DNA of 64,000 bases from Candidatus Methanomethylicus oleisabuli. GTDB lineage: Archaea; Thermoproteota; Methanomethylicia; Methanomethylicales; Methanomethylicaceae. The stretch covers positions 227-64,226 of the forward strand of contig MAGU01000051.1 of the NCBI GenBank assembly GCA_001717025.1. Direction: 5' to 3'. Below are positions 3,704 through 56,269 of this stretch, in pieces (positions within the stretch are counted from its first letter, which is position 1; each line of letters begins with the position of its first letter). The notes beneath the pieces are model-generated. The model worked only from the letters and a program-made list of their open reading frames with translations, did no database searches and was not told the origin of the DNA. Made by a program: the position numbers and the translations under genes.

Positions 3704-3963
3704 CCGCGGATGCAGACGACGTCTTGGTTTGCTTGACCGCATTCATTAGCGCTACTGCAGCAGGGGCAGGCGCCTAGCATTGACGGACGCGGCATGGTAG
3801 GGCGGCATCCGCCGTCGCCTCAAGGTCTGAATCACAATCACCTCGCGCGTTCCTGCCTCTATCGCCATCCGCCGCTCTCTGAACTCATCTACGCCGCCTG
3901 ACCAATTCAAATAATTAGGTGCGTGAACCTAGTGCTATAGGAAGGTAAGCGCCATTGCGGACG

Positions 3964-5211: not shown

Positions 5212-5214
5212 GCG

Positions 5215-7200
5215 ATGCAGGGCAATAATGGCAATTCGAGCGGCAATGCAAGGAAGATATTCCACAGGCTTGCCTCGATTGAGGAGTCGTATTCTATTCT
5301 GCTAGCGAACACCGAGCACGGGACAAAGGAAGAACAGCTTGCACTCTCAAACGCCAGAGGAAGGGTGCTGGCGACCGACGTCTTCTCTGGCGTCGACCTG
5401 CCCCCCTTCGACCGTGCAGAGATGGACGGTTACGCCGTTTCGTCAGAGGATATCGAAGGCGCGTCCGACCAGCGCCCGGTGTCTCTCGAGGTCATCTCCT
5501 CGATAAGCGCCGGCGACGGCCCATCCGTTGAGGTCAGGCGGGGGGCATGCGCCGAGATCGCAACCGGGGCACCGATACCCCGAGGGGCAGACTCCGTAGT
5601 CATGGTTGAGTACACGTCAAGGAATGGGGACACGGTCACTTTCTTCAGGGGGGTAGCGCCCAGCGAGAACGTTGCATCCTCCGGCTCCGACGTCCAGATT
5701 GGCGAGATGGTGCTGCGCCAAGGCACGGTCATAGGCACCAGGGAGGTGGCGATTCTATCCGCTATAGGGCTTGCCAGCGTGCGGGTCTTCCAGCTACCCC
5801 GTGTTGGGATAATCTCCACCGGCAACGAGCTCGTCCCTCCGGGGGGCAGCCTCTCGTTCGGTAAGATATACGACGTCAACTCGACATCCTTGATGGCGGC
5901 GGTGGGTGAGGCGGGAGGTGAGGGCATCTACTACGGGCATGCTAACGATGACTACGATAGCATCAGGTCAGCGATTGAGGATACCATAAATGAGTTCGAC
6001 CTAGTCCTCCTGTCGGGGGGGACATCTGCGGGCACAGGCGACCTTGCCTATCGCGTCATTGAGGACTTGTGCACCCCTGGCATCCTCGTTCACGGTCTAA
6101 AGGTAAAGCCGGGGAAGCCGACGATAGTCGCCTCCCACAAGGGCAAGGCAATCATCGGTCTTCCAGGATACCCCGTCTCCGCACTCGTGATCTTCGACCA
6201 GCTCGTTAAGCCGTTTATAGGGCTGATGTCAGGTAACTCCGCAAGGCCTGCGCAACTGCAGCGGGGGCGCCTCGCGCAGCGTGTCAATGGAGCAAAGGGG
6301 CGCAGGTGGCTGCTTCCGGTGCACGTCATAAAGTCCCGTGATGCCCCTGTCGTTCACCCGATCATCGCCAGCTCCGGGGCAACAAGCGCACTTGCCAAGG
6401 CCGACGGCTACATAGTGGTATCGGAGGAGGTCGAGTACGTGGATGCAGGCGAGGAGGTCATGGTTCGGCTCTTTCCAGGCGAGCAGAGCCCAGACCTTGT
6501 TGTAATGGGCAGCCACTGCCCAGGGCTCGACATCCTGCTGCAGCTGCTATACAGGCAGAACGGGATGCGGGCGAAGACGGCCAACATAGGCTCGCAGGGC
6601 GGATTGGCCGCGGTCTCGAGGGGGGAGGCCGACATCGCAGGAGCCCATCTGCTCGACCCAAACACCATGACCTACAATGCCCCATTCTTGGCTCAGTTCG
6701 GTCTCGCCGGCAGCTGCCTGATGAAGGGGTACCGACGCCTGCAGGGGATAATGGTCCCGCGCGGCAACCCCTGTGGCATCCGGTGCCTGGGCGACATAAT
6801 CGGAAGGGACGTCATCTTCGTCAACCGCAACAGGGGGTCAGGCACACGCGTGCTGATCGATATGGAACTCTCCAAGGCTGCTTCCGCTAGGGGGATCGAC
6901 TTCGGCACCATCGCCAAGCACGTGAGGGGGTACCGGTGGGAGGCGAAGACCCACTCTGCTGTAGGCGCTGCCATTAGTCAGGGTCGCGCGGACGTGGGCG
7001 TGGGCGTCAAGAGCGTCGCCGTGTCTTACGGGTTGGACTTCATCCCGATCTCAGACGAGGAGTATGACTTCATCATCAACCCCTCCTCAGCGGAGAAGCC
7101 CGCTGTTGCCGCATTCAAGGCTTGCCTCAAGTCAGAGGCTTTCCGGAAGGCTATCGCCGCGTTGCCGGGCTACTCGCCTTGGGGCGATGCTGCGACATAG
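5215..7200 (+). CDS. moeA: MoeA paralog fused to a C-terminal periplasmic-binding-protein-like (PBP-like) domain
   Basis: The N-terminal 400 aa are collinear with the upstream MoeA (GGTSAGTGD, LKVKPGKPT, LPGYPVSA). The C-terminal 250 aa is a PBP/LysR-substrate-like fold, as in long archaeal MoeA proteins. It lies 4 nt after the first moeA. Confidence 0.75.
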   Translation: MQGNNGNSSGNARKIFHRLASIEESYSILLANTEHGTKEEQLALSNARGRVLATDVFSGVDLPPFDRAEMDGYAVSSEDIEGASDQRPVSLEVISSISAGDGPSVEVRRGACAEIATGAPIPRGADSVVMVEYTSRNGDTVTFFRGVAPSENVASSGSDVQIGEMVLRQGTVIGTREVAILSAIGLASVRVFQLPRVGIISTGNELVPPGGSLSFGKIYDVNSTSLMAAVGEAGGEGIYYGHANDDYDSIRSAIEDTINEFDLVLLSGGTSAGTGDLAYRVIEDLCTPGILVHGLKVKPGKPTIVASHKGKAIIGLPGYPVSALVIFDQLVKPFIGLMSGNSARPAQLQRGRLAQRVNGAKGRRWLLPVHVIKSRDAPVVHPIIASSGATSALAKADGYIVVSEEVEYVDAGEEVMVRLFPGEQSPDLVVMGSHCPGLDILLQLLYRQNGMRAKTANIGSQGGLAAVSRGEADIAGAHLLDPNTMTYNAPFLAQFGLAGSCLMKGYRRLQGIMVPRGNPCGIRCLGDIIGRDVIFVNRNRGSGTRVLIDMELSKAASARGIDFGTIAKHVRGYRWEAKTHSAVGAAISQGRADVGVGVKSVAVSYGLDFIPISDEEYDFIINPSSAEKPAVAAFKACLKSEAFRKAIAALPGYSPWGDAAT

Positions 7201-7350
7201 CCCTCACTAGACGCCCTGCGGCACAGTCGCAGTAGACGCACCGCCGCGGCTATGCCCACAATCACCATTCTTGCTGATTGTCCGACCTCGAGGCATCCAG
7301 TTGCTGGGGCAGGGTCATTACAATTAGGGATGGCAGGAGGCCCGAGACCG

Positions 7351-7376
7351 GCGCTATCGCTATCGCTATCGCTATG
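7351..7376. repeat. hexanucleotide microsatellite (CGCTAT)x4
   Basis: gcgctatcgctatcgctatcgctatg read directly from the sequence. It lies in an ORF-poor region downstream of moeA2. Confidence 0.6.
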
Positions 7377-8193
7377 CAGAATATCGAGTGGTGGACGGTG
7401 AGCCAGACCATCCATGCCCATTGACCACAAATGGCCTGCCGAAGTGGCCTACGACGCAGACGTCTATCTATGGTGGATCAAAGAAGCTCTTGACCATCAA
7501 GCCCTCCTTAACTATCCCGTACGCTCCTCCACAAGAAGGGCTGAGCTGAAGCCTTTCCGCCGCTTCACCTTCAGCTCCCTGATCCTAGCGCCGCTCCCGT
7601 AGAAGCAAGATGTGATGGCTAGGATGAACGGGCTAGAACTCAGCCAGCGGCGCCTAGCCGGAGAGGCGCCATCCGATTGCGGGTGCTAGGGAGAACCGTT
7701 TGACCGGCGGACGCGCCTTGCCACCATTGCTTTTACCAAAATCCGCCCCGATCAAGAACGAAGGGCGGCTGTGTCGCATCTCCTCCACTCCGAAGTCTTA
7801 AAGCGCCCCACTCACCATGGTGGAGTATTGTAATCGGCGTTGCCGATGAGCGATTTGGCATATCCCCCTCTATCTGCTCTCCGAGGAGTTTTGTCAGCCA
7901 CGCGTTCGCAGGATTTTATTCGCTCTTGGCATCGGGAATCGCTGCCAGAAGCACAGGATACTTGGCGCGGCGGCACAGCATTCGATGCCCGCCATATGAG
8001 AGCGTCGCCGCGTCAGGCGGAGATAACGATGTTCGGCTTGTAGGACAGGGGGGGTGAGGGTCATCATAGCTGTGCCGTTCAACCGCATCCCTGTCTGTGG
8101 ATGAATGGCGTGGGGCGGCGAGCCGTGCATAATTAGTCAGGCGAAGGACCACAACCTTTTTCTTAGCCACGATTAGTTAGTGATACATTCGAG

Positions 8194-8649
8194 ATGATGA
8201 TTATGCCTCCAATGTTGCCTCCTAACGTGAGCGTGAGCGTAGGCTTCTCACAGATCAATGGTGAGAAGCTTATGGATCTTGAGAAAGGGATGGTGAACCT
8301 ACAGGTCACAACAAACATTAGCATAACCCGTGCCGTTCAGTTTGAGGGCGGCATTGATTTCGGCTTCGTCTTTGCCGTAAACTATAACCCCGCCGTTGCG
8401 AACCTGACGCTCAAGGGCTCCATCAAGGCGGCAGGCGGGCAGAGCGAGATCGGCGAGCTGAAGAAGGCATTCGATGAGAAGAAGACCCTCCCGCCAGGTC
8501 TATTGCAGGCAATATCCAACGCTGCGTTCATAGAGTGCATCCTGCTCGCTAGGTCGCTGAACATACCCCCGCCGATACCCCTGCCAATCATACAGTCGCA
8601 GGAGCAGCAGAAGCCCAAGATTGGTCCGAACCCAAGCTATATCGCCTGA
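8194..8649 (+). CDS. hypothetical protein (151 aa)
   Basis: Clean ORF with an ATG start. It has a Pro-rich N-terminus and a predicted beta-rich body. No recognisable motifs. Confidence 0.35.
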   Translation: MMIMPPMLPPNVSVSVGFSQINGEKLMDLEKGMVNLQVTTNISITRAVQFEGGIDFGFVFAVNYNPAVANLTLKGSIKAAGGQSEIGELKKAFDEKKTLPPGLLQAISNAAFIECILLARSLNIPPPIPLPIIQSQEQQKPKIGPNPSYIA

Positions 8650-8709
8650 TCGGCACTGCGCCCCCTCCCCTCTAAATTTGCCAGCTCCGCTCAATAAGCG
8701 GGCGGCCGC

Positions 8710-9501
8710 TCACGGCGCCCTTCCCGCGCCATGTCCTTCAGCGATCCTGCAGGATGCTAGGTCCTTGCAAAGCTCTCTGCAGCAGACCTCTGGCTCGTTG
8801 AGCAGCTCTAGGAACCTGCGCTCCAACCCGAATTTCTTCTGGCACCATGGGTGCTCATATGCAACGAGCTCGTACCTCTTAGCGACCTCCTTTCCCTCCT
8901 CCGTCTTCTTGAAGCACTCCCAGCATAGGTCGTAGCTGGCCCTCCTGTAGCCCTTTCCGCAAGACGGGCAGAGTGTCATGCCCTTCTGGCGGGCAAAGTG
9001 GCACCTCTTGCAGAGCACGATGCAGTCTGCGAGGCTTCTGCACTTCGCCTGCGCCTCGCTCCTCTCTGCCATCAACCTCTCCTTGATCTGGTCGGAGTAT
9101 TTTTCCCAGAATGACTTCCATTGCTCAGGCGAGACCCTGCCGGTCTTGACGGTTCTCCTCTCCGGAGAATCGAACTCTGCCCTGCAGTTCCTGCACTTGA
9201 GGGCTGGACTCTTCCGCTTCCGGCGCGCAAACGACGTGCCGCCGCAATGAGGGCACCGCTCAAGCAACAGCTCTACCTCGGAATACTCGCCCGCATCAAT
9301 CCGTTCCCTGAGCAGCTTAGCGGACGCCTCCTTCATCTGGGATATGTAAGGCGGCAGAGGCGCCCTCGCCGCAACGACAAGCCCGCTTGATGAGCCGCAC
9401 CAGTCGCACCTCTTCCCCGACAGGAACTTAGCCCTCCTCTCCTCCCGCTCCCTTCCCTGTAGCGCCCTCCTTCTGTTCCACGCCTCTGTCGAGCCGCTCA
9501 A
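8710..9501 (-). CDS. cysteine-rich protein with three paired CxxC zinc-ribbon motifs
   Basis: CDWCG/CPHCGG, CRNCR/CKRCH and CPSCGKG/CWECF pairs are spaced as zinc ribbons. The basic N-terminus and a CIVLCKRCHFARQK segment are reminiscent of an HNH-like tail. It is divergent from the methyltransferase at 9700. Confidence 0.45.
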   Translation of the reverse strand: MSGSTEAWNRRRALQGREREERRAKFLSGKRCDWCGSSSGLVVAARAPLPPYISQMKEASAKLLRERIDAGEYSEVELLLERCPHCGGTSFARRKRKSPALKCRNCRAEFDSPERRTVKTGRVSPEQWKSFWEKYSDQIKERLMAERSEAQAKCRSLADCIVLCKRCHFARQKGMTLCPSCGKGYRRASYDLCWECFKKTEEGKEVAKRYELVAYEHPWCQKKFGLERRFLELLNEPEVCCRELCKDLASCRIAEGHGAGRAP

Positions 9502-9699
9502 CTAGTCGCACCCTTGATGACGATATCTGCCCTTATTACTATAACTTTAATCTTTCTTGGAGATAAAACTGCGATTGACTACTTAGTGAAAGAAGAATAG
9601 GGCACCTGTGCATAAAGGTGGGCAACGGCTGACAGTTGAAACACTCATCACCGACGAGGCTTTAATATTAGCCAAATATCTAAGAGATGAAGTAGAGCT

Positions 9700-10620
9700 A
9701 TGGGCACCGAGGATAGCTGGAGTTTAATGCCAATGCTAATACCAAAAGCCGACAAGAGTAAGAGATTGCAAATCGGGTTTACCAAGACCTGCGATTGTCC
9801 TCCAAAGAATATCAGTTGCGTCACGGCAAAGGACTGGCTAAGGGGGATGGTGACGATTAAGGAATTCTATTATGAAGGTCGTGACATTCGGGACAAGGAT
9901 GTCCATCCCGCAGTATTCCCAATCTCCTTGCCTGCCCATTTTATTAAACTGCTCACTCATAAGGGAGCGCTTGTTCTTGACCCATTCATGGGGATAGGCT
10001 CGACCTTGGTTGCCGCACAGGACTTGGAGCGCAACGCCGTTGGCTTTGACCTTCAGCAGAAGTACGCAGATGTTGCGCTCACGAGGCTATCCCAAAGCAG
10101 ATTCGGGGAGAAGACAAGCCAGTTGGCAATAGTAGACGATGCCCACAACATTGCAGATTATCTAGATGAGGAGACCGTGGCATTGAGCATAACGTCGCCA
10201 CCTTACCCTCATTTTCTCACTCGCAAGAGAGAGAACAAGAGCATGAGGGGCGACCTGCGCAAGAATGGTCATTACCACAAGATACAGCAGTACTCAAACG
10301 ACCCGCGCGACTTAGGGTTAATGGACCACGACTCTTATGAAAAGACCTTGACCGAGATTTATAGAGGAATATTACCTCTCATGAAGAAGAGAGGGCACTG
10401 CATCATCAATGTGAACGATTTGTGGGAGGAGAATAAGCGCTATCCCACTCACATCTACGTTATTGAGGCATTGGCGAAGGCGGGCTTTGAGTTCAGGAAC
10501 ACATTCATCTGGGACAAGCGAAACCTCGTCAACCAAGTAGGAATTTTCGGATGGCCAAACAACTTCATTTCATTAGGAACTACGATGGAGTATATACTCG
10601 ACTTCTGGAGACCCGATTGA
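9700..10620 (+). CDS. DNA methyltransferase (SPPY catalytic motif; probable N4-cytosine or N6-adenine methylase)
   Basis: VLDPFMGIGSTLVAA (motif I, preceded by HPAVFP) is followed about 65 aa later by SITSPPYPH (motif IV), then FIWDK. The AdoMet-binding region precedes the catalytic motif (alpha/gamma-like order). GC content is visibly lower than the surroundings. Confidence 0.85.
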   Translation: MGTEDSWSLMPMLIPKADKSKRLQIGFTKTCDCPPKNISCVTAKDWLRGMVTIKEFYYEGRDIRDKDVHPAVFPISLPAHFIKLLTHKGALVLDPFMGIGSTLVAAQDLERNAVGFDLQQKYADVALTRLSQSRFGEKTSQLAIVDDAHNIADYLDEETVALSITSPPYPHFLTRKRENKSMRGDLRKNGHYHKIQQYSNDPRDLGLMDHDSYEKTLTEIYRGILPLMKKRGHCIINVNDLWEENKRYPTHIYVIEALAKAGFEFRNTFIWDKRNLVNQVGIFGWPNNFISLGTTMEYILDFWRPD

Positions 10621-10626
10621 TCGCAA

Positions 10627-11342
10627 TCATCTATGTCTTGATGGTGGCGCTTTGTATGCCTGCAGGCTTATTGGCAAATCCGAGAGCTTGTGGAACTCTT
10701 TGGTCAGGAAGTTGCCAAACTTCTCATACAGCTCATCGTTAATGTAGATCTCCTTCATTCCCCTGCTTATCATGTCCTCAGCTTTCGTCCTGTTGAAATC
10801 CGGGTCTGGTAGGAACAGAACGAACATGCCCTTGGGAATCTGAACACATCAATGTCTTCTGACCATCGTTCCCTCAACGTCCTCTTGACTGCGACAGCCA
10901 CGCCCCTTTCGGGGGTTGATGAGAGAACATCGTTAGATGGAATCACAAGATCAGGTCGATAGCCCTTATCCTTAATCCTTCCCTTCTCGCAGGGAATGCC
11001 CATCGCGTTAAGGACTAACCGGAGGATGCCTTCTTAGGATGATCCACCTCTCGCCCTTCTCGTATTCGATATACTCGTGACCAAGTTATCGGTTATGAAC
11101 GCTCTAGACGCCATATCTGCATCTTTCTTTGAGAGCCCTTCACGTATCAATTTGCTGCGCACGGCCTGCACCTCCTCCTTAAGATAGATCTCATGCGCCT
11201 TCTTCTCAATCTCCTCTACGACCTTCGCAAAATTGCTGCCATTCACAAGCTCGTTTAGACTCGCGCTCTTCTTTTCACGAATAACTTCTGCAATCCCCCT
11301 TTGCAGTATCTCATCTACCAGTGGGATGTCCAATTTTGCCAA
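10627..11342 (-). pseudogene. disrupted gene: three collinear ORF fragments (in-frame TAA then frameshift)
   Basis: ORFs 11034..11342 and 10770..11003 are in the same frame, separated by a TAA at 11034-11036. ORF 10627..10827 overlaps in another frame. A GYRPDLVIPSNDVL...AVAVK segment weakly resembles a PD-(D/E)xK nuclease core. The region is low-GC and abuts the methyltransferase. Confidence 0.35.
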
Positions 11343-11560
11343 CTTACTGCCTCATTCTGTTCATCTACTCTTTATGTTAATAAACCGCTCTGCAAAAATC
11401 CAAGATCAACTCTGCACTCCGATCCGCAGATGACTACGAGTCAGTACAAACGTATGTGTGGAGATCTGATTTTTACTTTAAAAAGGGCATGTTTTTTATG
11501 CAAAAAGGGACAACTATATTGCCGTGAGGATCATCCGTTAAAGTTGAAGAGCGTGTTATG

Positions 11561-12583
11561 ATGATCAAATTGACTAAGGTTACCGCCTCCGCACCCGGCA
11601 AGGTCGCCCTCTTCGGGGAGCACGCTGTCGTATATGGGTACCCTGCTATGGCAGGCGCGATAGACCGGCGCGTCTATGTCTCCGTAGAGGAGAGGAGCGA
11701 CGACCTGATCAAGATCCATGCGATGGACTTGAGCGTGCCTGGCATCGTGCTTACGATAGGCGGGACCGGAAAGGACGTTGCCGTCGAGACCGATTACAGA
11801 CGCATCATGGATGCCGTTGGCTACGTTCGGAAGGCAATTGAGGTCACCTCGAACATATGCGACCTGAAGAAGGGAGTAACCGTCCACATAAGGTCGGAGA
11901 TGCCGGTGGGTGCCGGTCTAGGGACCTCAGCGGCTGTGAGCGTAGCGACCATTATGGCATACTCTGCTGTTGGAGGTCATGCACTAAACAGCGAGGAGGT
12001 CTCCGCGCTCGGACACAGGGTCGAGCTTGAGGTACAGGGCGCCGCCAGCCCAATGGACTCCGCAGTAGCGGCCCATGGCGGCATACTCCTTATCCGTCCG
12101 ATGCTCAGAGAGGCCTCGCTGACGCCGGTTAAGGCTGAACTTGGTCTGCCGCTCGTCGTAGGGTATACCCCTAGAGAGTGTGGCACAGGAGAGATGCTGC
12201 GCAGGGTCAGGAACCTGAGGGACGCGGCGCCGGAGTCCGTGGACTCGATCCTATGCTCGATCGGGAAGGTGGTCTCTGAGGCGGATTCTGCCATGAGGAG
12301 CGGTGACCTCCGGAGGGTTGGCATGCTTATGAACGTCAACCATGGCCTCCTCGAGTCGCTCGGTGTATCGACAAAGAAGATCAACGAGATGGTCTACTCT
12401 GCCCGATCAGCCGGTGCTTTGGGGTCGAAGCTGACCGGCGCTGGCGGCGGGGGGTGCATGATCTCGCTCTGCCCGGACAGGGAGGCTGAGGTCATGACTG
12501 CCATATCAGTAGCGGGGGGCACGGCATTCATATCTTCCATATCAAGTAGGGGCGTCTGCATCGAGAAGGGCGAGAGCATCTAG
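11561..12583 (+). CDS. mvk: mevalonate kinase (GHMP kinase family)
   Basis: N-terminal APGKVALFGEHAVVYG matches the mevalonate kinase motif. The GHMP ATP-binding loop PVGAGLGTSAA is present. Length is about 340 aa. Confidence 0.8.
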   Translation: MIKLTKVTASAPGKVALFGEHAVVYGYPAMAGAIDRRVYVSVEERSDDLIKIHAMDLSVPGIVLTIGGTGKDVAVETDYRRIMDAVGYVRKAIEVTSNICDLKKGVTVHIRSEMPVGAGLGTSAAVSVATIMAYSAVGGHALNSEEVSALGHRVELEVQGAASPMDSAVAAHGGILLIRPMLREASLTPVKAELGLPLVVGYTPRECGTGEMLRRVRNLRDAAPESVDSILCSIGKVVSEADSAMRSGDLRRVGMLMNVNHGLLESLGVSTKKINEMVYSARSAGALGSKLTGAGGGGCMISLCPDREAEVMTAISVAGGTAFISSISSRGVCIEKGESI

Positions 12584-13116
12584 CCACTTACACGCCTGCC
12601 TTTAATACCTCCTCTGAAAGCTCCTATGCAATCATCAATCTTTGGGGCTATCTTCTCCGAGAGCCTTAACAATTCGCCATCGCTTCCATGCCATCGCCCT
12701 GTCCAGTCGATGCCTTTGCAAGTAGACGCTGCCAAAATGTGCCTCTTGGTTACTATGAACGGGTGGCGCCTGCACGTATCCGGTCTAAGGTCGTAGTGGC
12801 TGCACCTGCTACCTTCGAGGAAGACGCATGCGTCGTCGACCATCTTCATCTTCCGCTCAGCACCCGTCAGTGCAATCTCCTCCTCGCTCATCGGCTCCGT
12901 GCATGCCTCTGCATATTTCCCGAGCCTAATGATGTCTCCTCCAAACAGTGCGATGACCTTTCCGGTACAGCAACGCGCACATAATGTGCATTCAAATGCC
13001 GGGATGTAGCAGGATAGCAACATCTCTATCTGCGGAACAGGCTCCACGTCTTTCACCGTTGCGTGGTCTCTGCTTGACCTTCTTGTTGCCTTAACCATAT
13101 CTTTGCGCCTGTCCAT
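12580..13116 (-). CDS. YkgJ/UPF0153-family CxxCxxCC metal-binding domain protein
   Basis: ECTLCARCC (CxxCxxCC) near the N-terminus and additional Cys downstream. The 178-aa size is typical of this family. Confidence 0.5.
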   Translation of the reverse strand: MDRRKDMVKATRRSSRDHATVKDVEPVPQIEMLLSCYIPAFECTLCARCCTGKVIALFGGDIIRLGKYAEACTEPMSEEEIALTGAERKMKMVDDACVFLEGSRCSHYDLRPDTCRRHPFIVTKRHILAASTCKGIDWTGRWHGSDGELLRLSEKIAPKIDDCIGAFRGGIKGRRVSG

Positions 13117-18805: not shown

Positions 18806-18830
18806 GTGTACAAATTATTATTTTGTACAC
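18806..18830. promoter_or_regulatory. perfect inverted repeat GTGTACAAA-N7-TTTGTACAC immediately upstream of a TATA-like box (tttatata) preceding the hydrogenase operon
   Basis: 9-bp perfect palindromic arms read directly from the sequence. AT-rich promoter context at about 18836-18850. The first plausible ATG of the operon is at 18899. Confidence 0.5.
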
Positions 18831-18898
18831 ATTCGGATAATTTATATATGACTTATCACAAATATACAACCAGCATTGTTGTTAGTGGGTGTTTTTCG

Positions 18899-19270
18899 AT
18901 GAATGGACACATTACACCTAAGCCCAAGCCCGCCTCTCAAAGGCTCTCTCTCATCATCGCCTTCTCGCTTATGGCTGTCGGTCTTATCGGCGTAATGGCT
19001 GCGAGTATTTACTCTGATTTTATCTTGCTTATGGCTTTTGTCGAGATAACTACCGTCGCGATGTTCTTCATCCTCATCCTCAGCCTTATCCCGGCGTACT
19101 TCCCTGATCATGTTGATGCCGAGTCTATATTCTACAGCGGTCTTGCAAAGGAGCCGTATATGTCAAACGATTGGGTATACCGGCCGAACGTCCCTCTGCT
19201 CAACGTTGGATACGACCACGATTGGGACCACTATTATGACCGGAAGGCAGTGAGGGTGGAACCGCAATGA
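18899..19270 (+). CDS. small two-TM membrane protein, first gene of the hydrogenase operon (possible Mrp-like small subunit)
   Basis: Two strongly hydrophobic helices. Its stop overlaps the start of the next gene (ATGA at 19267-19270). The listed ORF start (GTG 18806) lies inside the palindrome and is rejected. Confidence 0.4.
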   Translation: MNGHITPKPKPASQRLSLIIAFSLMAVGLIGVMAASIYSDFILLMAFVEITTVAMFFILILSLIPAYFPDHVDAESIFYSGLAKEPYMSNDWVYRPNVPLLNVGYDHDWDHYYDRKAVRVEPQ

Positions 19271-20826
19271 TGGAGAACTCGATCCTTCCATTGGTAGCCC
19301 CCCTCGCCCTCCTCGTCGGCGGCATACTTGCCCCGCTCGTCTCGAAGGGAGGGAAGGGGATGCTCTCCATACTCTCCGTATTCTTCATCGCAGCTATTGG
19401 CGCAAACACGTTCATGCTCCTCACCGTCGGTGAGGGCGCCCTTTACTATCCTGCGCCGGCGGGCATAGTCATAAACGCCTCGTCAGCATTTGTCATCGAG
19501 CTGGCGCTAATCCTGGGCTTCCTGGGCGCGGTGTACAGCCTACAGTACTTCGTAGACAGCACCCACTTGGGCGCCTTCTACACCCTGTACTGCATATTCG
19601 TCGCATCCCTCGTCGTGATGGCGTCCTCCTTCAACATGCTCATAATATATACCTGCTTCGAGGCTAGCACCATCGCCGGCGGCATCCTAATACTGTTCAC
19701 CCGTAGGACGTCCGCCACGAAGGCGGCGGTCCGCTTCTTCATAATGAGCGTCATTGGCGCTTTGATAATTCTCGTAGGCATACTCTACCAGAACTATGCC
19801 ACTGGCGCCTTCATGCTCAGCGCATCCGCATTCGAGTCGCTGGCAGCGTCCGACCTGGTCTTGCTAGCCGCCATATACTCCATAGGATTCAGCATTAAGG
19901 TCGGCGTCTTCCCGTTTGGACTCCTGTGGCTCCCGTCCGCCCATAGCGAGGCGCCAACCCCAGTCAGCGCCATACTCAGCGGGGTGATGGTCCAGATGGC
20001 GGCATTCGCCGTCGCCCGCATAGTCGGAGTGATGGCGCCCCAGAGTGCAACGCTTGCTTATCTGCTGATCGGCATGGGCGCCCTCAGCGTGATAGTGGGC
20101 GCATCGCTCGCGGCGGTTGAGGCGACCGCTGGAAGCAAGTGGTCCCGCTTCCATGTAGGCGCGGTCAATATAAGGGGCATAAAGCGCATATGGGCGTTCT
20201 CCACCTCCTCTGAGGTCGGCGTCTTCTACATCCTCATCGGGCTAGGCATACTCGAACCTGCCCTGTTGCCGGTCTTCTTCGTGGGCATCCTCCTCCACTT
20301 CCTCAATCACGGTCTCGCAAAGGCGCTACTCTTCTTCGACAGTGGCTTCATCATTGAGACGAGCAGGGTCGCGGACCTCTCTGTGCTCAAAGGCATGGGG
20401 CGCAAGCTCGGCCCTAACGGGATGACCTACCTAGTCGGCGGCTTCTCGCTTGCTCTGATACCTGGAACCCTTGGATACACCACGTTCAGGGAGTTCACGT
20501 CCCCCAACGTCAGCATATACCTTACCGCTACGGTCTTCGCCGCTGCAGCGCTCATATTCTTCTCCACCGTTTACTCGTTGCGCTGCTTCGCGTCTGGCAA
20601 GCCCAAAGCTAAGGTGGAGTACTTGGGGACGCAGGAGGGGGGCCACGCGCTGCTCAGACTACCTGGCATAGTCATAGCCGTATGCATCCTCGTCCTTGGC
20701 ATAATAATTACTCTGGGGGCAAACAACATAGCCTTCCAAGGCACATTCATGCAGATTGAGGAGTGGCTCGAGATGGCAGCCACGACGATATTCCACGAAA
20801 CGGCGGTATTGGGGGTGGGCCTCTAA
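19267..20826 (+). CDS. NuoL/HyfB/MnhD-family antiporter-like membrane subunit of group 4 hydrogenase
   Basis: LWLPSAHSEAPTPVSAILSGVMV matches the proton-antiporter (PF00361-type) signature WLPxAxxGPTPVSAL. About 14 TM helices. Confidence 0.8.
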   Translation: MMENSILPLVAPLALLVGGILAPLVSKGGKGMLSILSVFFIAAIGANTFMLLTVGEGALYYPAPAGIVINASSAFVIELALILGFLGAVYSLQYFVDSTHLGAFYTLYCIFVASLVVMASSFNMLIIYTCFEASTIAGGILILFTRRTSATKAAVRFFIMSVIGALIILVGILYQNYATGAFMLSASAFESLAASDLVLLAAIYSIGFSIKVGVFPFGLLWLPSAHSEAPTPVSAILSGVMVQMAAFAVARIVGVMAPQSATLAYLLIGMGALSVIVGASLAAVEATAGSKWSRFHVGAVNIRGIKRIWAFSTSSEVGVFYILIGLGILEPALLPVFFVGILLHFLNHGLAKALLFFDSGFIIETSRVADLSVLKGMGRKLGPNGMTYLVGGFSLALIPGTLGYTTFREFTSPNVSIYLTATVFAAAALIFFSTVYSLRCFASGKPKAKVEYLGTQEGGHALLRLPGIVIAVCILVLGIIITLGANNIAFQGTFMQIEEWLEMAATTIFHETAVLGVGL

Positions 20827-21386
20827 TGGTGACGGCACACAAGTATAGCCCTCCGGCATTCCACGTTCTCGCACCGAGGATCCAGAAGCGGCTAGGCGAG
20901 CCGATAACCGTCCCCGGGACTGATGAGAAGGTTACCGACTTGGTCGTTGTCCACGACCCAAACAAGTGCACTGGTTGCAACCAGTGCATGATCGGGTGCG
21001 CCTACAAGCACTACCGGACGTTCGACAGGAGCTTCGCTCTGCTCTACGTCAACGAGTCGCCAGACAAGAACGGCTTCTACGTCAATGCCAACTGCCAGCA
21101 CTGCGTCTTCCCCATGTGCCTAGCATCGTGCCCCAAGGAGGCGATATACAAGGACGAGAAGGGTATCGTCCGGATCTCTCCTCTGCTATGCGTTGGCTGC
21201 GGCACTTGCAACCAGGCTTGCCCTATTGGCATACCACGCCTGGATGATGAACGCAAGATCTTCGTGAAGTGCGACTTCTGCGACGGCGATTACCCGATGT
21301 GCTACCAGATGTGCAGTACAGGCGCGCTGAAGTTGCTGCCTCGCAAGGAGGCGTTCGAGCTGGTCAAGAAGCTTAGGAGCGTGTGA
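20826..21386 (+). CDS. HycB-like ferredoxin subunit with four [4Fe-4S] binding motifs
   Basis: Four motifs: CTGCNQCMIGC, CQHCVFPMCLASCP, CVGCGTCNQACP, CDFCDGDYPMCYQMC. The start ATG overlaps the upstream stop (TAATG). Confidence 0.8.
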   Translation: MVTAHKYSPPAFHVLAPRIQKRLGEPITVPGTDEKVTDLVVVHDPNKCTGCNQCMIGCAYKHYRTFDRSFALLYVNESPDKNGFYVNANCQHCVFPMCLASCPKEAIYKDEKGIVRISPLLCVGCGTCNQACPIGIPRLDDERKIFVKCDFCDGDYPMCYQMCSTGALKLLPRKEAFELVKKLRSV

Positions 21387-21390
21387 TCAG

Positions 21391-21744
21391 GTGTCAAGCG
21401 AACCGAAACCTCTGAAGAGCTGGATCAGGCTGCTTGAGGCAGGGAAGAAGATGACGTCCCACAAGCAGGACGAAGAGAGCATACTCTACCCGCTACGCCG
21501 GACCTTCAGGCCTGTCGCTCCTGACATCACCAAAGGGTCGCTTAAGCGGGACTTTGAGCAGGGTCTGGTATACTACGTTGGTGACGAAATCGAGGATGAC
21601 CGGGCAGCCTGCGGACTCGATAGGCTGCCCCCCACTGGACGGATTTACCCCGACGCCGTTGTGAAGAAGAGGGTGATCCTCGAGGAAGCAGGCGTCTTCA
21701 AGAAGACCGCCTACAACAAGAAGAAGGGGACTTTTGATTACTGA
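21391..21744 (+). CDS. hypothetical 117-aa protein embedded in hydrogenase operon
   Basis: Hydrophilic and charged, with no Cys motifs. It sits between the hycB-like and CCG-protein genes with 4-6 nt spacers. Confidence 0.4.
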   Translation: MSSEPKPLKSWIRLLEAGKKMTSHKQDEESILYPLRRTFRPVAPDITKGSLKRDFEQGLVYYVGDEIEDDRAACGLDRLPPTGRIYPDAVVKKRVILEEAGVFKKTAYNKKKGTFDY

Positions 21745-21750
21745 ACGCGA

Positions 21751-22788
21751 TTGGTGGTACCCATGTCTGTTGCTAAACCAAATTTAAACTCAAAGGTCGA
21801 ATCGAATAATGCCTCGAATGGCGCCTCAGAGTCTCTGAACTTATCCAGCAACAATGTGAAACCGACGAAGTATGGCTACTTCTTGGGCTGCGTGATGCCC
21901 GCGAAGATGCCGTGGGCGGAGAAGGCAACGATGATCATATCAAAGCACCTTGGGCTGGACTTTGGTTACATGAAGGAGGCGCTCTGCTGCGCTAGACCTG
22001 GGGTGTGGAAGGCAATAAGCCCTGACTGGTGGCTCAGCCTAACGGCGCAGAACCTCGCAAATGCCGAAAAGCAGGGGATAACCATCGTCGATACATGCAA
22101 CGGTTGCTGGATCTCACACTACGAGGCCATAAAAGAGCTCACCGAGGAGCCCGAGAAGATGAAGATGGTCAACGATCAACTCGCGAAGGTCGATCTGCAT
22201 CTTAAGGGAGACGTAAAGGTCAAGCATTACCTTGAGCTCCTCCACGACGATGTGGGCATGGAGAAGATCGTCTCACGCGTCGTGCGCCCGCTAACCGGAA
22301 TAAGGGTCATGAGGCACATCGGTTGCCACGCAAGGAAGCACGACGAGACGTTGCCAAACGATTTCGACGAGATCCTCAGGGCAACGGGTGTGGAGATCAT
22401 CGACACTCCCTACGACAAGACCTGCTGCGGCCTATTGCTATACTTTGCAGACCCAAACCAAGCCATACTGGAGCGCATAGGTAAGAAGATGAAGACCGCC
22501 CAGGCACTAGATGTGGATGCATACGTGATCATCTGCTCGGGTTGCTACGACCAGTTCGAGAGGGGTGTTAAGATATACCGGGATGAGAAGGGAATAAGCT
22601 TCGAGACCCCCATTATACACTTCTCGGAGCTGCTTGCACTAGCGTTCGGCTACGAGCCGGAGGACTTTGGCATGACGCGCTGCCGACCCATAGCCGTTGA
22701 CAGGTTCATCGAGAAGGTCAAGGCAATAACCGCTGAGAACGCCAAGAAAGCGGCGGGGGCAAAGGAGAAGGGGGATGGTTTGCCATGA
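21751..22788 (+). CDS. HdrB-like protein with two complete CCG (cysteine-rich) domains
   Basis: First domain C-X31-CC-X35-CxxC (GCV...EALCCARPG...CNGC). Second domain C-X32-CC-X35-CxxC (GCH...KTCCGLL...CSGC). All ten Cys of the noncubane-cluster-binding pattern are present. Confidence 0.8.
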   Translation: MVVPMSVAKPNLNSKVESNNASNGASESLNLSSNNVKPTKYGYFLGCVMPAKMPWAEKATMIISKHLGLDFGYMKEALCCARPGVWKAISPDWWLSLTAQNLANAEKQGITIVDTCNGCWISHYEAIKELTEEPEKMKMVNDQLAKVDLHLKGDVKVKHYLELLHDDVGMEKIVSRVVRPLTGIRVMRHIGCHARKHDETLPNDFDEILRATGVEIIDTPYDKTCCGLLLYFADPNQAILERIGKKMKTAQALDVDAYVIICSGCYDQFERGVKIYRDEKGISFETPIIHFSELLALAFGYEPEDFGMTRCRPIAVDRFIEKVKAITAENAKKAAGAKEKGDGLP

Positions 22789-24497
22789 AATTCGAGTCCG
22801 ATCCAACGTTGGTCGACTTCGTCAGGACCGAGGTGGTGCCAGAGGGGACCTCATTCAGGGCTCTCCACGAGAACAGGGTTGCCGTAAGGATCAACGCCGA
22901 GGACGCCGACAGGCTGGCTGGGAGGTTCATGAGTAGATTCAATGCCCGCCTCATCCACGAGACCGCCGTGGACATGGAGGTGGAGGGGTTCGACATGGTC
23001 TACATCTACGACTTCTCCAAGGTGAAGGACCGGCTGGTAGTCGTACTTGAGGCACGGATATCTAAGGACGACCCGTCTCCGCCCTCGATTGCAAAGATCA
23101 CTTGGCAGGCGAGCTGGGCAGAGCGCGAGATACACGACCTCCTCGGCATCAGCCCCAGGGGGACGCCAGATCCGCGCAAGCAGTTCCTGCCATATGAGTG
23201 GCCAAACGCGGCAGAGAGCGGGGCAGCTCCGCCGCCACCAGAAAAGGGCCCCTCTGGTCCGCAGGAGAAGTGGATTCCGCTCGGCATCGCGCCTAACGAC
23301 GCCTATGCAACGCTTATCCCTATAGGCCCATACCATCCGGGCGTTATAGAGGGGCAGACCGTCTATGTCAAGGTTGAGGGCGAGACCGTCGTCTCTGCCG
23401 ACATAAAGACCGGCTTCCACCACAGGGGCATACAGAAGCTCATCGAACGCCGGGGCTACCACAAGGGCGTCTTCGCCGCTGAGAGGGTCTGTGGCATCTG
23501 TAGTGCTGCGCACGGCCTCGCCTACGTGACTGCGTGCGAGAACCTATACGAAGCCGAGGTGCCGGACAGGGCGCTCTACTTGAGAACCCTCCTGCTGGAG
23601 CTGAACAGGGTTCACAGCCACCTCCTCTGGATAGGCGTAGTGGCGGACGTCATTGGCTGGAAGACCGGCTTCCACCTCTCGTGGGGTATCAGGGAGCGCG
23701 TTATGGACATCATCGAATCGATAACGGGTAACAGGGTCAACTACGGCATATGGCGCATCGGTGGCATGAGCAGGGACGTGTCCAAGGAACTGGCAGAGAG
23801 GGTGCTGCCGGCAGTCAAGGCGCTCAAAGCCGAGATGGCCCAGCTTCTGCCCGAGATTGCTGCGCATTCGGTCGTGAAGTCGAGGCTTGTGGGGGTCGGG
23901 CCCCTCTCTTATGCGGACGCATTCGACGGTGGCGCGGTAGGGCCGGTCGCAAGGGCAAGCAACTGGAGGATAGACGTCAGGGCAGACAACCCCCCTCACG
24001 CGATGTACGACCCCAAGGTCATCAGCTGGGAGGTCGTCACTGATGAGGGATGCGACACCTATGGGCGCACGCTAGTGAGGGTTAAGGAACTTCTCGTCTC
24101 TTCTGAGATCATTATCCAGTGCCTCGAGTACTTGGCAAAGACAACCGGAGATATCCGGCTAGAGCCGAAGGTCATACCCGTGAACTCTGAGGGGATAGGG
24201 CTCAACGAAGCTCCCAGGGGGGAGCTAGTCCATTACGTCAGGGCAAGCGAGTTCAACATGAACCTGCCGCAGGCATACAGGATACGGACGCCAAGCTACA
24301 GGAACAACGCACTGATTCCAAAGATGCTAGTTGGCGCCAACTTGGCAGACGTGCCTGTCGTGATGGGCAGCACCGACCAGTGCCTCGCATGCACCGACCG
24401 GTTTGAGGTGATCCGCGAGGGGGGCGGCGCATCGCAGTCCATGAGCTGGGGCGAGCTCGTGGCGCTAGGCAGGAGGGGACGGTTCGGGAGGGTTTAA
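22785..24497 (+). CDS. group 4 [NiFe]-hydrogenase large subunit (NuoC-NuoD-like fusion, HycE-type)
   Basis: The N-terminal 150 aa is NuoC-like. RVCGICSAAH (RxCGxCxxxH) and C-terminal DQCLACTDR (DxCxxCxxR) supply the four Ni-Fe cysteine ligands. Length is 570 aa. Confidence 0.85.
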   Translation: MKFESDPTLVDFVRTEVVPEGTSFRALHENRVAVRINAEDADRLAGRFMSRFNARLIHETAVDMEVEGFDMVYIYDFSKVKDRLVVVLEARISKDDPSPPSIAKITWQASWAEREIHDLLGISPRGTPDPRKQFLPYEWPNAAESGAAPPPPEKGPSGPQEKWIPLGIAPNDAYATLIPIGPYHPGVIEGQTVYVKVEGETVVSADIKTGFHHRGIQKLIERRGYHKGVFAAERVCGICSAAHGLAYVTACENLYEAEVPDRALYLRTLLLELNRVHSHLLWIGVVADVIGWKTGFHLSWGIRERVMDIIESITGNRVNYGIWRIGGMSRDVSKELAERVLPAVKALKAEMAQLLPEIAAHSVVKSRLVGVGPLSYADAFDGGAVGPVARASNWRIDVRADNPPHAMYDPKVISWEVVTDEGCDTYGRTLVRVKELLVSSEIIIQCLEYLAKTTGDIRLEPKVIPVNSEGIGLNEAPRGELVHYVRASEFNMNLPQAYRIRTPSYRNNALIPKMLVGANLADVPVVMGSTDQCLACTDRFEVIREGGGASQSMSWGELVALGRRGRFGRV

Positions 24498-24499
24498 CC

Positions 24500-25474
24500 A
24501 TGGTCGACCATGTCTTCACGATCCTATCGATAGCGCTGATAATTCCAATCAGCCTCTTCCTTGGCGTGATGTATTCGTTTCTCATAAGGAAACTAAGCGC
24601 AAGGTTCCAGTGGAGGGTCGGTCCAATCGTCAGGATGTACGGCGACCTCGCCCCCGTCATCGGGTCGACTAGAATCTGGCAGCCGCTTTACGACATACTC
24701 AAGCTCTTCGGGAAGGACGCCTTGATCCCCTCAACAGCTCATAAGAGGCTCTTCACTTGGTCGCCCTACCTCTCCCTCTTCTTCAGCTTCGCAGCAGTTC
24801 TGTTCATTCCGTTCCCCGGCTTGCCGCTGCTATCCGGCACCCCTTACAGCCTCATCATAGCATCCTACCTGCTGATCGCGTCGATATTGTTCACGATACT
24901 CGGTCCAGCCGCCAGCGGATCTCCTTGGGGCGCCATAGGCGCGAGGCGCGAGGTTGAACTCTTCCTTGTCGCTGAGCTGAGCTTCGTTGCAAGCCTATTC
25001 GTGGTCGCGGTAACGAAGGGCACGCTTGTCATATCAGAGCTCGCTGGTTTCGTTGGCAGCATCCCCATGATGCTGGTCACGGCGCTCGCGGGCATAACGA
25101 TGTTCGCAGCCATGCTTGGCAAGCTGCACATCAAGCCGTTCGATATGCCTGAGGCAGAGTGCGAGATCGTTGCAGGACCATACACCGAGTACTCGGGCAA
25201 GCTACTCGGCACATACTTCCTAGCCAAGGTATTTGTTCTATACAACATGGTTGCCCTGTTCATCGCAGTATTCCTGCCCCCCCTGTCATCTTCAGTACTG
25301 TGGTTGCCCCTCTATGTCGTCGCAGCGCTGGTTCTAATATTTCTGCTTGCCGTCGTCCATGTCCTGAACCCAAGGTACACCATTGCAAAGGCGCTAATGT
25401 GGTACACAAAGATCATAGTCCCGTTGGTTATAGTTGGTTTCATAGCTGCATTCTTTCTGAGGGTGGTTGCATAG
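24500..25474 (+). CDS. NuoH/HycD/EchB-like membrane subunit
   Basis: 324 aa with about 8 TM helices and NuoH-like conserved loops. It starts 3 nt after the large-subunit stop. Confidence 0.8.
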   Translation: MVDHVFTILSIALIIPISLFLGVMYSFLIRKLSARFQWRVGPIVRMYGDLAPVIGSTRIWQPLYDILKLFGKDALIPSTAHKRLFTWSPYLSLFFSFAAVLFIPFPGLPLLSGTPYSLIIASYLLIASILFTILGPAASGSPWGAIGARREVELFLVAELSFVASLFVVAVTKGTLVISELAGFVGSIPMMLVTALAGITMFAAMLGKLHIKPFDMPEAECEIVAGPYTEYSGKLLGTYFLAKVFVLYNMVALFIAVFLPPLSSSVLWLPLYVVAALVLIFLLAVVHVLNPRYTIAKALMWYTKIIVPLVIVGFIAAFFLRVVA

Positions 25475-26062
25475 ATGTCCACACACATCAAGATCCTGAA
25501 ACAGGTCATACAAAAATACAGCTCGCCGATGACCCTGAACTATCCTTCCAGCATCGACAAGAAACGTATGTACAGCCAGATACCGGAGGGTTTGAGGGGT
25601 TTCCTCGAGAGGGATGAGGAGAAATGCGTCGGTTGCCGGGCGTGCTACATGGTATGTTCTGGAAGGGCGACTAAGATCTTCGATACTGCCGACAAGAGGA
25701 CGGTGCAGGTCTTCCACTTCAGGTGCACTTACTGTGCGCACTGCGAGGAGTGTTGCCCTGAAGATGCGATAAAGCTGACCTCAAAGTTCGAGCTTGCCGT
25801 AACTGACAGGAATGACCCGAAGGCATACGTCAACACTGACCTAAAGATGCTCTCCTGCAAGGCATGCAACAAGCCTTACCTGCCTGAGAAGATGCAGAAG
25901 CGGGTGTTTGAGAGACTGAGCGAGAAGATAAATCCGAAGGTAAAGGGCGTCGTGGTCGAGGACTACCACAAGACCGAGGGGTTCTGCCCGGAGTGCAAGA
26001 GGGTCCGTGGGGTGCTGCTCGACACACACACCAAGAAGCACATATGGCTGGAGGTCGTTTAG
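25475..26062 (+). CDS. NuoI/HycF-like 2x[4Fe-4S] ferredoxin subunit
   Basis: CVGCRACYMVCSG and CTYCAHCEECCP motifs. Contiguous with neighbouring genes. Confidence 0.75.
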   Translation: MSTHIKILKQVIQKYSSPMTLNYPSSIDKKRMYSQIPEGLRGFLERDEEKCVGCRACYMVCSGRATKIFDTADKRTVQVFHFRCTYCAHCEECCPEDAIKLTSKFELAVTDRNDPKAYVNTDLKMLSCKACNKPYLPEKMQKRVFERLSEKINPKVKGVVVEDYHKTEGFCPECKRVRGVLLDTHTKKHIWLEVV

Positions 26063-26515
26063 ATGGGTCTCATAGACAGGGCTAGGATATACTCGCCATG
26101 GGTTTATCACTTACACTGCGGCGGATGCAATGGTTGCGATATAGAGACGCTTGCCGCGCTGGCACCCCGTTTCGACGTTGAGCGTTTCGGCATTCAGTTG
26201 GTTGCATCGCCTAGGCACGCCGACATACTCTTGGCTACGGGGTGTGTCCCGAAGCAATTCATCCCTATGGTCAAGAGGGTCTACAACCAGACCCCTGACC
26301 CCAAGGTGGTCGTTGCAATAGGCGGGTGTGCCTGCGGGGGGAGCCTCTTCTACGATGAGGACCCTGAGAACTATGCCATACTTGGATCGCCTGATATGCT
26401 GATACCGGTCGATGTATATGTCCCCGGGTGCGCCCCGAAGCCAGAGCAGATCATCAATGGAGTAGTCCAGGGGATACTAAAACTGAACGAAAAGGCAACG
26501 CGCAGGAGTAAGTGA
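26063..26515 (+). CDS. NuoB/HycG-like [NiFe]-hydrogenase small subunit
   Basis: HCGGCNGCDIE, GGCACGGSLF and PGCAPKPEQI correspond to the HycG/EchC proximal-cluster cysteines. Confidence 0.85.
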   Translation: MGLIDRARIYSPWVYHLHCGGCNGCDIETLAALAPRFDVERFGIQLVASPRHADILLATGCVPKQFIPMVKRVYNQTPDPKVVVAIGGCACGGSLFYDEDPENYAILGSPDMLIPVDVYVPGCAPKPEQIINGVVQGILKLNEKATRRSK

Positions 26516-26545: not shown

Positions 26546-27409
26546 ATGAGATCAGGCGAAACGGTAATCTATGCGATGGATTGCATCGAAGGCATGAGGC
26601 GCTACGTGAAGGACCGGCAGGTCGACGCAATAGTGACCTCTCCGCCTTACAACTTGGGCATCAGGTACGGCAAGTATGATGATGCCATCCCACGGGCAGA
26701 TTACCTCCGTTGGATGACGAAGGTCGCTGAAGAGTGCAAGCGGGTCCTCAGTGACGATGGGTCATTCTTCCTCAACATAGGGTACTCGTCGAAGGATCCT
26801 TGGGTGGCATGGGAGGTCGCCTTCCAACTGCGGAGCATCTTCGAGCTTCAGAACGTCATCCACTGGATAAAGTCGATCGCCATAGAGAAGTCTCAGGTAG
26901 GCGGGCTCGCGAATATGTGCGGCGACGTGGCTGTGGGGCACTATAAGCCGATCAACAGCGACAGGTATCTGAACAAATGTCACGAGTATATATTTCACTT
27001 CACAAAGGGGGGCGATGTGCCGCTGGACCGGCTGGCCAACGGCGTCCCTTACCAGGACAAGAGCAATGTGCGGCGATGGGGCCGCACAGCAAGGGACTTG
27101 AGGGACCGCGGCGATACTTGGTTCATACCTTACGAGACGATCAAATCGAGCAAAAACGAGCGCCCCCACCCGTCGGCATTCCCTCCTAAGCTTCCAATGA
27201 TGTGCATCAAGCTACACGGTCTATGCAAAACGCATCTGGTCATGGATCCTTTCATGGGGATCGGGGACACCGCTATCGCATGCGCTCGGCTTGGCGTGGG
27301 GTGCATAGGCTTCGAGATAGACGAGTCTTACGTAAAGGTCGCTGAAGAGCGGCTGGCAGCCGAGAGGCGGGCGCTACAGTGGCAAAGTAATGCTTTGTTG
27401 ACGCATTAA
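26546..27409 (+). CDS. DNA methyltransferase, beta-class (SPPY motif IV before FxGxG motif I)
   Basis: VTSPPYNLG is near the N-terminus and HPSAFP...[12 protein letters not shown] near the C-terminus. This is the PF01555-type order. GC content is close to the host average. Confidence 0.85.
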
Positions 27410-50329: not shown

Positions 50330-50333
50330 TACC

Positions 50334-51644: not shown

Positions 51645-51648
51645 TTTT

Positions 51649-56246: not shown

Positions 56247-56269
56247 GCAGCGGCGTTAAGCTAGGGCGT

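Follow-up and report, generated by a model that had tools for sequence, protein, structure and literature searches.

The final reaction of methyl-reducing methanogenesis yields the heterodisulfide of coenzyme M and coenzyme B (CoM-S-S-CoB). In the Methanomethylicia (formerly Verstraetearchaeota), a membrane [NiFe]-hydrogenase named Ehd is encoded together with HdrBC and an antiporter subunit, and it has been proposed to couple the oxidation of H2 to the reduction of CoM-S-S-CoB and to ion translocation (Kohtz et al., 2022, PMC9723716, Fig. 4B/F). Ehd is traced to Borrel et al. (2019, as cited in PMC9723716), and is counted among the heterodisulfide-reduction routes of the Yellowstone Methanomethylicia by Lynes et al. 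Here, we describe the corresponding region in a stretch of 64,000 nucleotides from Candidatus Methanomethylicus oleisabuli (GenBank assembly GCA_001717025.1, contig MAGU01000051.1, positions 227 to 64,226), which is referred to as the window at its full length. Nine co-directional and tightly packed genes, identified from the list of open reading frames and by reading the sequence, form a hydrogenase and HdrB operon at positions 18899-26515 of its + strand.

The operon is ehd, a complex already published and named for the Methanomethylicia, and does not represent a new system. As in the published description of Ehd (PMC9723716), the hydrogenase genes, hdrB, an 'hdrC' and the antiporter gene were found in one nine-gene cluster; the lineage, gene content and proposed function are the same, and no essential difference was observed. 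An earlier note on this DNA, made from the letters without database searches, had regarded the gene combination as lying outside any characterised group-4 subgroup. That view did not survive the comparison, as Ehd is published and its relatives Drh, Ehe and Ehg are named. The note had itself held that its novelty would fall if the HdrB-like protein were a regular, described subunit of a named subclass, and within Ehd it is exactly that.

Drh of the Methanocellales, named 'disulfide-reducing hydrogenase' by Lyu and Lu (2015), resembles the window operon in that NuoCD-, NuoH-, NuoI- and NuoB-like genes come after a module of ferredoxin, HdrC tail and HdrB, with 42-45% identity between the HdrB proteins and 34-38% between the large subunits. 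It differs in having no antiporter-like subunit and in the location of its small transmembrane (TM) gene, between those for HdrB and the large subunit. The Drh of Methanocella conradii is transcribed, and is upregulated in syntrophic coculture (PMC6046458). HdrB is also embedded in a group-4 hydrogenase cluster in Ehe of the Culexarchaeia and in Ehg of the Methanonezhaarchaeia/Nezhaarchaeia. However, in Ehe nuoB directly follows hdrB and the cluster is co-located with GcvH, HdrA2B2C2 and SdhA, whereas Ehg is co-located with FdhA, HdrA and MvhD. The Ehg large subunit falls into a separate clade (Kohtz et al., PMC9723716), and Ehg is expressed in a cultured strain (PMC12700198). The identity tiers of the large subunit, which were 58-91% within the Methanomethylicia and at most 47% for all others, were consistent with the Ehd/Ehe/Drh placement.

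The comparison with two further enzymes illustrates how the complex may be assembled. The HycB, C, D, E, F and G subunits of Escherichia coli formate hydrogenlyase (FHL; Hyd-3, PDB 7Z0S) have one-to-one homologs in the window operon with 26-45% identity, and the fused NuoC-NuoD large subunits are of equal length and share a C-terminal extension. The window complex differs in the lack of FdhF, in place of which HdrB and the HdrC tail are encoded, in the presence of an extra small subunit with two TM segments, and in its presumed uptake of H2, whereas E. coli FHL evolves H2. Given this one-to-one mapping, the complex can best be envisaged as an FHL scaffold with HdrB and the HdrC tail substituted for FdhF. 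No gene for FdhF or another molybdopterin oxidoreductase, or for CooS or carbon monoxide dehydrogenase, was detected in the cluster or in the rest of the window, as the earlier note had stated, and an FHL or Coo-type enzyme was rejected because FdhF and CooS genes are missing there. The soluble HdrABC-MvhAGD complex (PDB 5ODC, 8RVU) shares a full-length HdrB with all CCG cysteines, as well as HdrC residues 123-184. In contrast, the window complex has no HdrA, hence no flavin-based bifurcation module, it lacks the HdrC ferredoxin domain, and its electrons would come from a membrane group-4 hydrogenase instead of Mvh.

The gene junctions are compact throughout the operon. ATGA overlaps were found between gene 1 and the antiporter-like gene (19267-19270) and between hdrB and the large subunit gene (22785-22788), a TAATG junction joins the antiporter-like and ferredoxin genes at 20824-20828, and other boundaries have gaps of 4 nt (21386/21391), 2 nt (24497/24500) and 0 nt (25474/25475 and 26062/26063). 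The nine genes and the junctions given in the earlier note were thus all present in the sequence; its start for gene 1, GTG 18806, was rejected, as this position falls inside the promoter palindrome, and was replaced by ATG 18899. The corrected start of the ferredoxin gene is ATG 20826 and that of hdrB is most likely ATG 21763. Domain calls were obtained from Pfam and NCBIfam scans, which recovered every product of the first reading, namely the antiporter, the four-cluster ferredoxin, the CCG protein and the NuoCD-, NuoH-, HycF- and HycG-like subunits. Hydropathy analysis indicated three membrane proteins, having 2, at least 11 and 8 TM segments; the other six were predicted to be soluble. The same order of genes was seen in dozens of genomes, and the arrangement far exceeds what chance would give.

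The hydrogenase core is encoded by the last four genes. The large subunit (22785..24497, 570 aa) is a fused NuoC-NuoD, HycE-like protein with NuoC, NuoD (Complex1_49kDa) and NiFeSe_Hases domains in Pfam. Its best PDB matches were MbhL (6cfw_L, 1.6e-74) and HycE (7z0s_E, 1.8e-73), and its full-length identity to E. coli HycE is 32%. The two ligand motifs noted earlier, RxCGxCxxxH and DxCxxCxxR, were located as RVCGICSAAH (residues 234-243) and DQCLACTDR (531-539), and a C-terminal extension of 31 aa continues past the latter. Among 120 relatives, 115 retain both motifs together with the extension (median 29 aa), which suggests a HycI-type maturation, and from its sequence the hydrogenase looks active. 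As all four [NiFe] cysteines are present, an Ehr-type non-hydrogenase complex, which the earlier note had named as a possible objection, was rejected.

The remaining group-4 genes follow directly, with gaps of 0-2 nt. The NuoH/HycD-like membrane subunit (24500..25474, 324 aa, 8 TM segments) matched NADHdh at 3.3e-50 and is 31% identical to HycD. The HycF/HyfH-like subunit (25475..26062, 195 aa) corresponds to the NuoI-like protein with 2x[4Fe-4S]; it matched Fer4_21 and the NCBIfam families hydrogenase 4 subunit H (1.6e-29) and FHL Fe-S subunit (1.6e-28), with 29% identity to HycF. The HycG/NuoB-like small subunit (26063..26515, 150 aa) matched Oxidored_q6 at 5.9e-29 and is 45% identical to HycG.

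The HdrB-type subunit (21763..22788, 341 aa) contains two CCG domains. The family TIGR03288 was matched over its entire length (1-290/290) at 208 bits, compared with 86 bits for SdhE, and the match to 5odc_B was end-to-end with E = 3e-53; judged from these matches, the protein is a member of the HdrB family and not a canonical equivalog. In an alignment of 14 family members, the ten CCG cysteines (C43, C75, C76, C112, C115, C188, C221, C222, C258 and C261) were invariant, so that both CCG domains are intact, as had been noted. They form two copies of the motif CXnCCXnCXXC, which fits two non-cubane [4Fe-4S] clusters, and the CCG centre is presumed to be the disulfide-reducing site. Residues 1-35 (21763-21870) make up a low-complexity, Ser/Asn-rich N-terminal extension, which was seen only in the closest Methanomethylicus-like sequences and is missing from most homologs.

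The 117-aa protein encoded upstream of hdrB (21391..21744), an 'orphan' in the earlier note, is a stand-alone homolog of the HdrC C-terminal tail. In the PDB, a profile of its family (14 members) matched HdrC chains exclusively. The best match, 8rvu_c (E = 1.3e-11), aligned profile positions 53-114 with residues 123-184 of the 185 in HdrC, and every PDB match covered the final ~62 HdrC residues. A single-sequence search gave E = 0.0067, and the homology is drawn from the profile-sequence match; the AlphaFold2 model of the protein alone had a predicted local distance difference test score of 46, too poor for a fold search. A narrower profile showed the stand-alone family to be tiny, with 14 representatives, almost all short, among 1.84 billion; full-length HdrC stayed out of its reach at whole-library E-values. 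The 117-aa protein contains a single Cys and lacks a ferredoxin domain. A partner HdrC with two [4Fe-4S] clusters was thus not found in the operon, which encodes the C-terminal tail of HdrC only. One homolog of the 117-aa protein is annotated by the Joint Genome Institute (JGI) as 'heterodisulfide reductase subunit C', and labels of this kind probably explain the 'HdrBC' of the literature.

The ferredoxin (20826..21386, 186 aa; Fer4_11, 7e-20) has 16 Cys arranged in four [4Fe-4S] cluster motifs. Its best PDB matches were 8c0z_C, 7qv7_A (HycB3) and 7z0s_B (HycB), and its full-length identity to E. coli HycB is 26%. No HdrC-family match occurred among the best 25 NCBIfam families listed or the 34 PDB matches. 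On this sequence evidence, the ferredoxin is of the HycB/DmsB type and is not an HdrC.

The antiporter-like subunit (19267..20826, 519 aa, at least 11 TM segments; Proton_antipo_M, 1.3e-22) belongs to the NuoL/M/N and HycC family and is 29% identical to HycC. It retains the Glu of TM5, the Lys of TM7 and the central His/His/Lys residues. The TM8 Lys position is occupied by Gln in all five Methanomethylicia Ehd sequences examined, and a conserved Glu was observed at +2 from the TM12 position. The Methanomicrobiales homologs have Lys at both the TM8 and TM12 positions. Gene 1 (18899..19270) encodes a small membrane subunit of 123 aa with two predicted TM segments, as assigned from the start in public assemblies, hydropathy and a weak DUF2108 match, and its homologs were found in Ehd, Drh-like and Ehe-like clusters.

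The distribution of the operon was determined by an HdrB-family profile search of 185,579 species genomes, which returned 51 loci, and the nine window proteins were compared to each of these loci by tblastn. In every locus with enough flanking sequence, hdrB was preceded by a HycB-like ferredoxin gene and situated beside or near the hydrogenase core. The small-protein gene sits between the ferredoxin gene and hdrB in most loci. The loci of the Methanomethylicia presented the full nine-gene order, and the antiporter gene had no match in two Methanomethylicota loci (L027 and L029). All relatives of the CCG protein at 51-99% identity belong to the Candidatus Methanomethylicota/Verstraetearchaeota, and the exact proteins of the window also occur on 18-180 kb contigs of several public metagenomes. 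The gene order is identical in Ca. Methanomethylicus mesodigestus V1 (L014; nine proteins 81-93% identical), in the cultured Ca. Methanosuratincola verstraetei LCB70 (L019; 58-85%) and in the cultured M. petrocarbonis LWZ-6 (L024; 60-85%). In JGI 3300031749 (L003), which is near-identical to the LCB70 locus, ehd (5191-12613) is divergent from mtaB, mtaC and a RACo-type corrinoid activase gene (2498-4725), and this adjacency provides a physical link to methanol methyltransferase genes.

Beyond the Methanomethylicia, related clusters vary in composition. Those of the Methanocellaceae are without the antiporter gene and keep everything else. Clusters of cultured Methanomicrobiales, located at ~8.2-15 kb of each locus in Methanoculleus palmolei DSM 4273 (L040), Methanospirillum lacunae Ki8-1 (L048) and Methanoregula (L054), have the ferredoxin, HdrC-tail and HdrB genes joined to group-4 genes, with the antiporter-like gene located 3' of nuoB; in 2018, Drh was reported as 'not found in other methanogens' (PMC6046458). 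In the Culexarchaeia and in 'Ehd-like' clusters of the Methanomethylicia, nuoB is relocated beside hdrB. A metagenome-assembled genome (MAG) of the Baldrarchaeota (GCA_030587435.2, L065 2765-8145) encodes NuoH, NuoI, NuoB, Fer4_11, an 83-aa protein, CCG and NuoCD, and through this Asgard cluster the HdrB-hydrogenase module reaches beyond the TACK group and the Euryarchaeota. The closest large-subunit clusters of the Odinarchaeia and Bathyarchaeia contain no hdrB, so hdrB is not universal in the wider clade. A Bathyarchaeia locus (L066 468-7164) has a HycB-like ferredoxin gene and an 86-aa gene upstream of its hydrogenase genes, the latter likened by position to the HdrC tail; as no CCG/HdrB gene was called in it, HdrB may have been lost.

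We assign a probability of roughly 0.6 to the reading in which the nine subunits form a membrane complex that oxidises H2, passes the electrons to HdrB and reduces CoM-S-S-CoB, possibly with ion translocation. The subunit contacts, substrate, electron direction and ion pumping in this model are extrapolated from the observed gene content, cofactor motifs, homologies, synteny and distribution. The scaffold would be FHL-like, composed of the HycE-, HycG-, HycF-, HycB-, HycD- and HycC-like subunits together with the small two-TM protein, and HdrB would take the place of the formate dehydrogenase, held by the stand-alone copy of the HdrC tail. H2 would be oxidised at the [NiFe] site, and the electrons would pass in turn to the cluster of the small subunit, to the two of the HycF-like subunit and to the four of the HycB-like ferredoxin (seven conventional [4Fe-4S] clusters). 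The two non-cubane [4Fe-4S] clusters of HdrB would then receive them and reduce CoM-S-S-CoB, while ion translocation might be coupled through the NuoH-like and antiporter-like subunits. The reaction of H2 with the heterodisulfide releases ~-53 kJ/mol under standard conditions (E0' -414 vs ~-140 mV), and may therefore be coupled to ion translocation.

The known physiology fits this model. M. petrocarbonis needs H2 for methanol or methylamine reduction (PMC12244365), Methanomethyliales are reported to be without HdrA (PMC12054007), and some MAGs are without both HdrABC and Mvh (Lynes et al.; PMC12054007). The position of ehd beside mtaB and mtaC in the M. verstraetei-like contig also fits. H2:heterodisulfide oxidoreduction, the main functional reading of the earlier note, is a published hypothesis, and appears a reasonable one that matches the evidence from sequence. 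Ehd is thus the leading candidate for the recycling of CoM-S-S-CoB without HdrA in H2-dependent methyl-reducing methanogens outside the Euryarchaeota, where it perhaps also conserves energy. It matters for methanogenesis in the Thermoproteota and for the modular evolution of complex-I-like machines, an importance that is already recognised; the window contributes a further copy of the operon with some details of its anatomy.

Several observations weigh against the H2:heterodisulfide reading, or against its energy-conserving part. The literature searched yielded no biochemistry on Ehd, Drh, Ehe or Ehg. The 208 bits of the HdrB match are lower than the TIGR03288 equivalog cut-off of 345. No mcr, mta, hyp or further hdr genes were detected within the window, and without mcr, mta or hyp genes there the metabolic context is drawn solely from taxonomy. 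The module also has homologs in non-methanogens (Culexarchaeia, Baldrarchaeota), so the substrate would not be CoM-S-S-CoB in every lineage. In the antiporter-like subunit, the TM12 Lys/Glu aligned with E. coli NuoL K399 is Phe; this position is replaced in all five Methanomethylicia Ehd sequences examined (Phe, with Ala in one). To our knowledge, all characterised relatives (Mbh, Ech, FHL-Mrp, Fpo, Nuo, MBS) export ions with electron flow toward NuoD/NuoB. An Ehd that takes up H2 would run opposite to this superfamily polarity, which makes energy coupling doubtful, and the TM12 substitution together with the antiporter-less Drh adds to the doubt on ion translocation.

Given these points, we regard it as doubtful that Ehd conserves energy during H2 oxidation, which would demand ion export while electrons leave the NuoD/NuoB site, in reversed polarity. 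The HdrC-tail adaptor, the HycB-type wire and the TM12 Phe with its shifted Glu may be adaptations to such reversed coupling. In the accessible literature, we found no discussion of the polarity problem or of these structural details, though some anatomical details of the operon may already be published.

The same doubts lend themselves to a different explanation, in which the complex and its reaction are as above and no ions are exported: an uncoupled, or gradient-consuming, membrane-anchored H2:heterodisulfide reductase, with energy conserved elsewhere, for example by an Fpo-like complex with HdrD. This has been suggested for Drh, which according to Kohtz et al. (PMC9723716) probably does not take part in forming an ion gradient, and the Methanocellaceae clusters that keep all but the antiporter-like gene agree with it. 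The replacement of the TM12 residue in the five Methanomethylicia sequences points the same way, and outward pumping during H2 uptake would run counter to the coupling polarity established for the superfamily. Nevertheless, most Methanomethylicia operons with upstream flank still carry the antiporter-like gene, at 54-88% identity, the two loci without a match being those named above. The preserved TM5 Glu, TM7 Lys, central His/His/Lys and +2 Glu argue for a functional channel, and an uncoupled enzyme would waste ~53 kJ/mol. We hold this uncoupled reading to be unlikely.

An arrangement that respects the polarity of known group-4 enzymes can also be drawn, in which reduced ferredoxin enters at the HycB-like subunit and H2 is evolved with ion export, as in Mbh or Ech, while HdrB acts as an alternative, regulated outlet to the heterodisulfide (a ferredoxin:H+/heterodisulfide oxidoreductase). 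HycB-type four-cluster proteins are generic docking or wire modules, and the nearest large-subunit relatives in the Odinarchaeia, which have no HdrB, resemble simple ferredoxin-coupled enzymes. HdrB is likewise missing from the Bathyarchaeia cluster, though its HycB-like ferredoxin and small-protein genes are kept. However, methyl-reducing Methanomethylicia consume H2 (PMC12244365), and HdrB is strictly conserved in the cluster. Without HdrA, and in some MAGs without HdrABC and Mvh, there is no obvious catabolic source of reduced ferredoxin and a route from H2 to the heterodisulfide is needed, which renders the ferredoxin-driven arrangement quite improbable.

Least probable of all is a CCG substrate other than CoM-S-S-CoB, whether another disulfide (DsrC-like, lipoyl-protein or polysulfide) or succinate/fumarate or glycolate-type chemistry, because the host is a Methanomethylicus-type methanogen in which CoM-S-S-CoB is the abundant disulfide, the full-length HdrB match stands far above SdhE, GlcF, GlpC and LdhH, and SdhA, GlcD and GcvH genes are not adjacent, even though HdrB scores under the equivalog cut-off, Ehe-like clusters adjoin genes for GcvH, lipoate ligase, HdrA2B2C2 and an SdhA-like flavoprotein, a non-methanogen of the Baldrarchaeota has the same module, and an unknown disulfide has been proposed for the Culexarchaeia by Kohtz et al. 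(PMC9723716). The succinate/fumarate or glycolate-type reading offered in the earlier note was abandoned on the same grounds, as the SdhE/GlcF-type matches were far weaker than HdrB (208 vs 86 bits for SdhE) and no flavoprotein partner is adjacent.

The region upstream of gene 1 contains candidate regulatory elements. A perfect palindrome with 9-bp arms, GTGTACAAA-N7-TTTGTACAC, is located at 18806..18830 (no strand assigned); it occurs once in the window, where 0 matches are expected by chance. It lies directly upstream of a TATA-like box, TTTATATA, read from the sequence at 18841..18848 on the + strand, ~50 nt 5' of the gene-1 ATG. The TATA-proximal half-site TGTACAC(W)TT(M)GG is kept upstream of gene 1 in the Methanomethylicus and Methanosuratincola loci, and the TATA-like box is conserved in six loci (L013, L014, L018, L019, L022 and L024). 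The palindrome is a candidate operator of the ehd operon, and TTTATATA, by the archaeal TATA consensus, is a putative promoter element.

The remainder of the window carries housekeeping functions, including a purine-synthesis cluster, MoeA paralogs, ABC transporters and NikR, and an Rfam scan of the window detected no RNA families. The G+C content of the window, ~55%, is near the 54.4% of M. petrocarbonis (PMC12244365). Two genes for N6_N4 DNA methylases were observed (26546-27409 and 9700-10620). The former begins 30 nt past the end of the ehd operon and on its strand, no obvious T-rich terminator separates the two, and the gene is not conserved downstream of ehd in L001-L004, the genomes with downstream genes listed. 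At 55218-58331, a NikR-family regulator gene comes after an operon for a ZnuA-type ABC transporter; together they may serve nickel-responsive uptake, which would be relevant to an organism dependent on a [NiFe]-hydrogenase and F430. The purine cluster is on the minus strand at 43656-54127, with co-directional purQ, purL, purS, purE, purK/T-like, purD, purF-like and purC genes, and coincides with a stretch of strongly negative GC skew.

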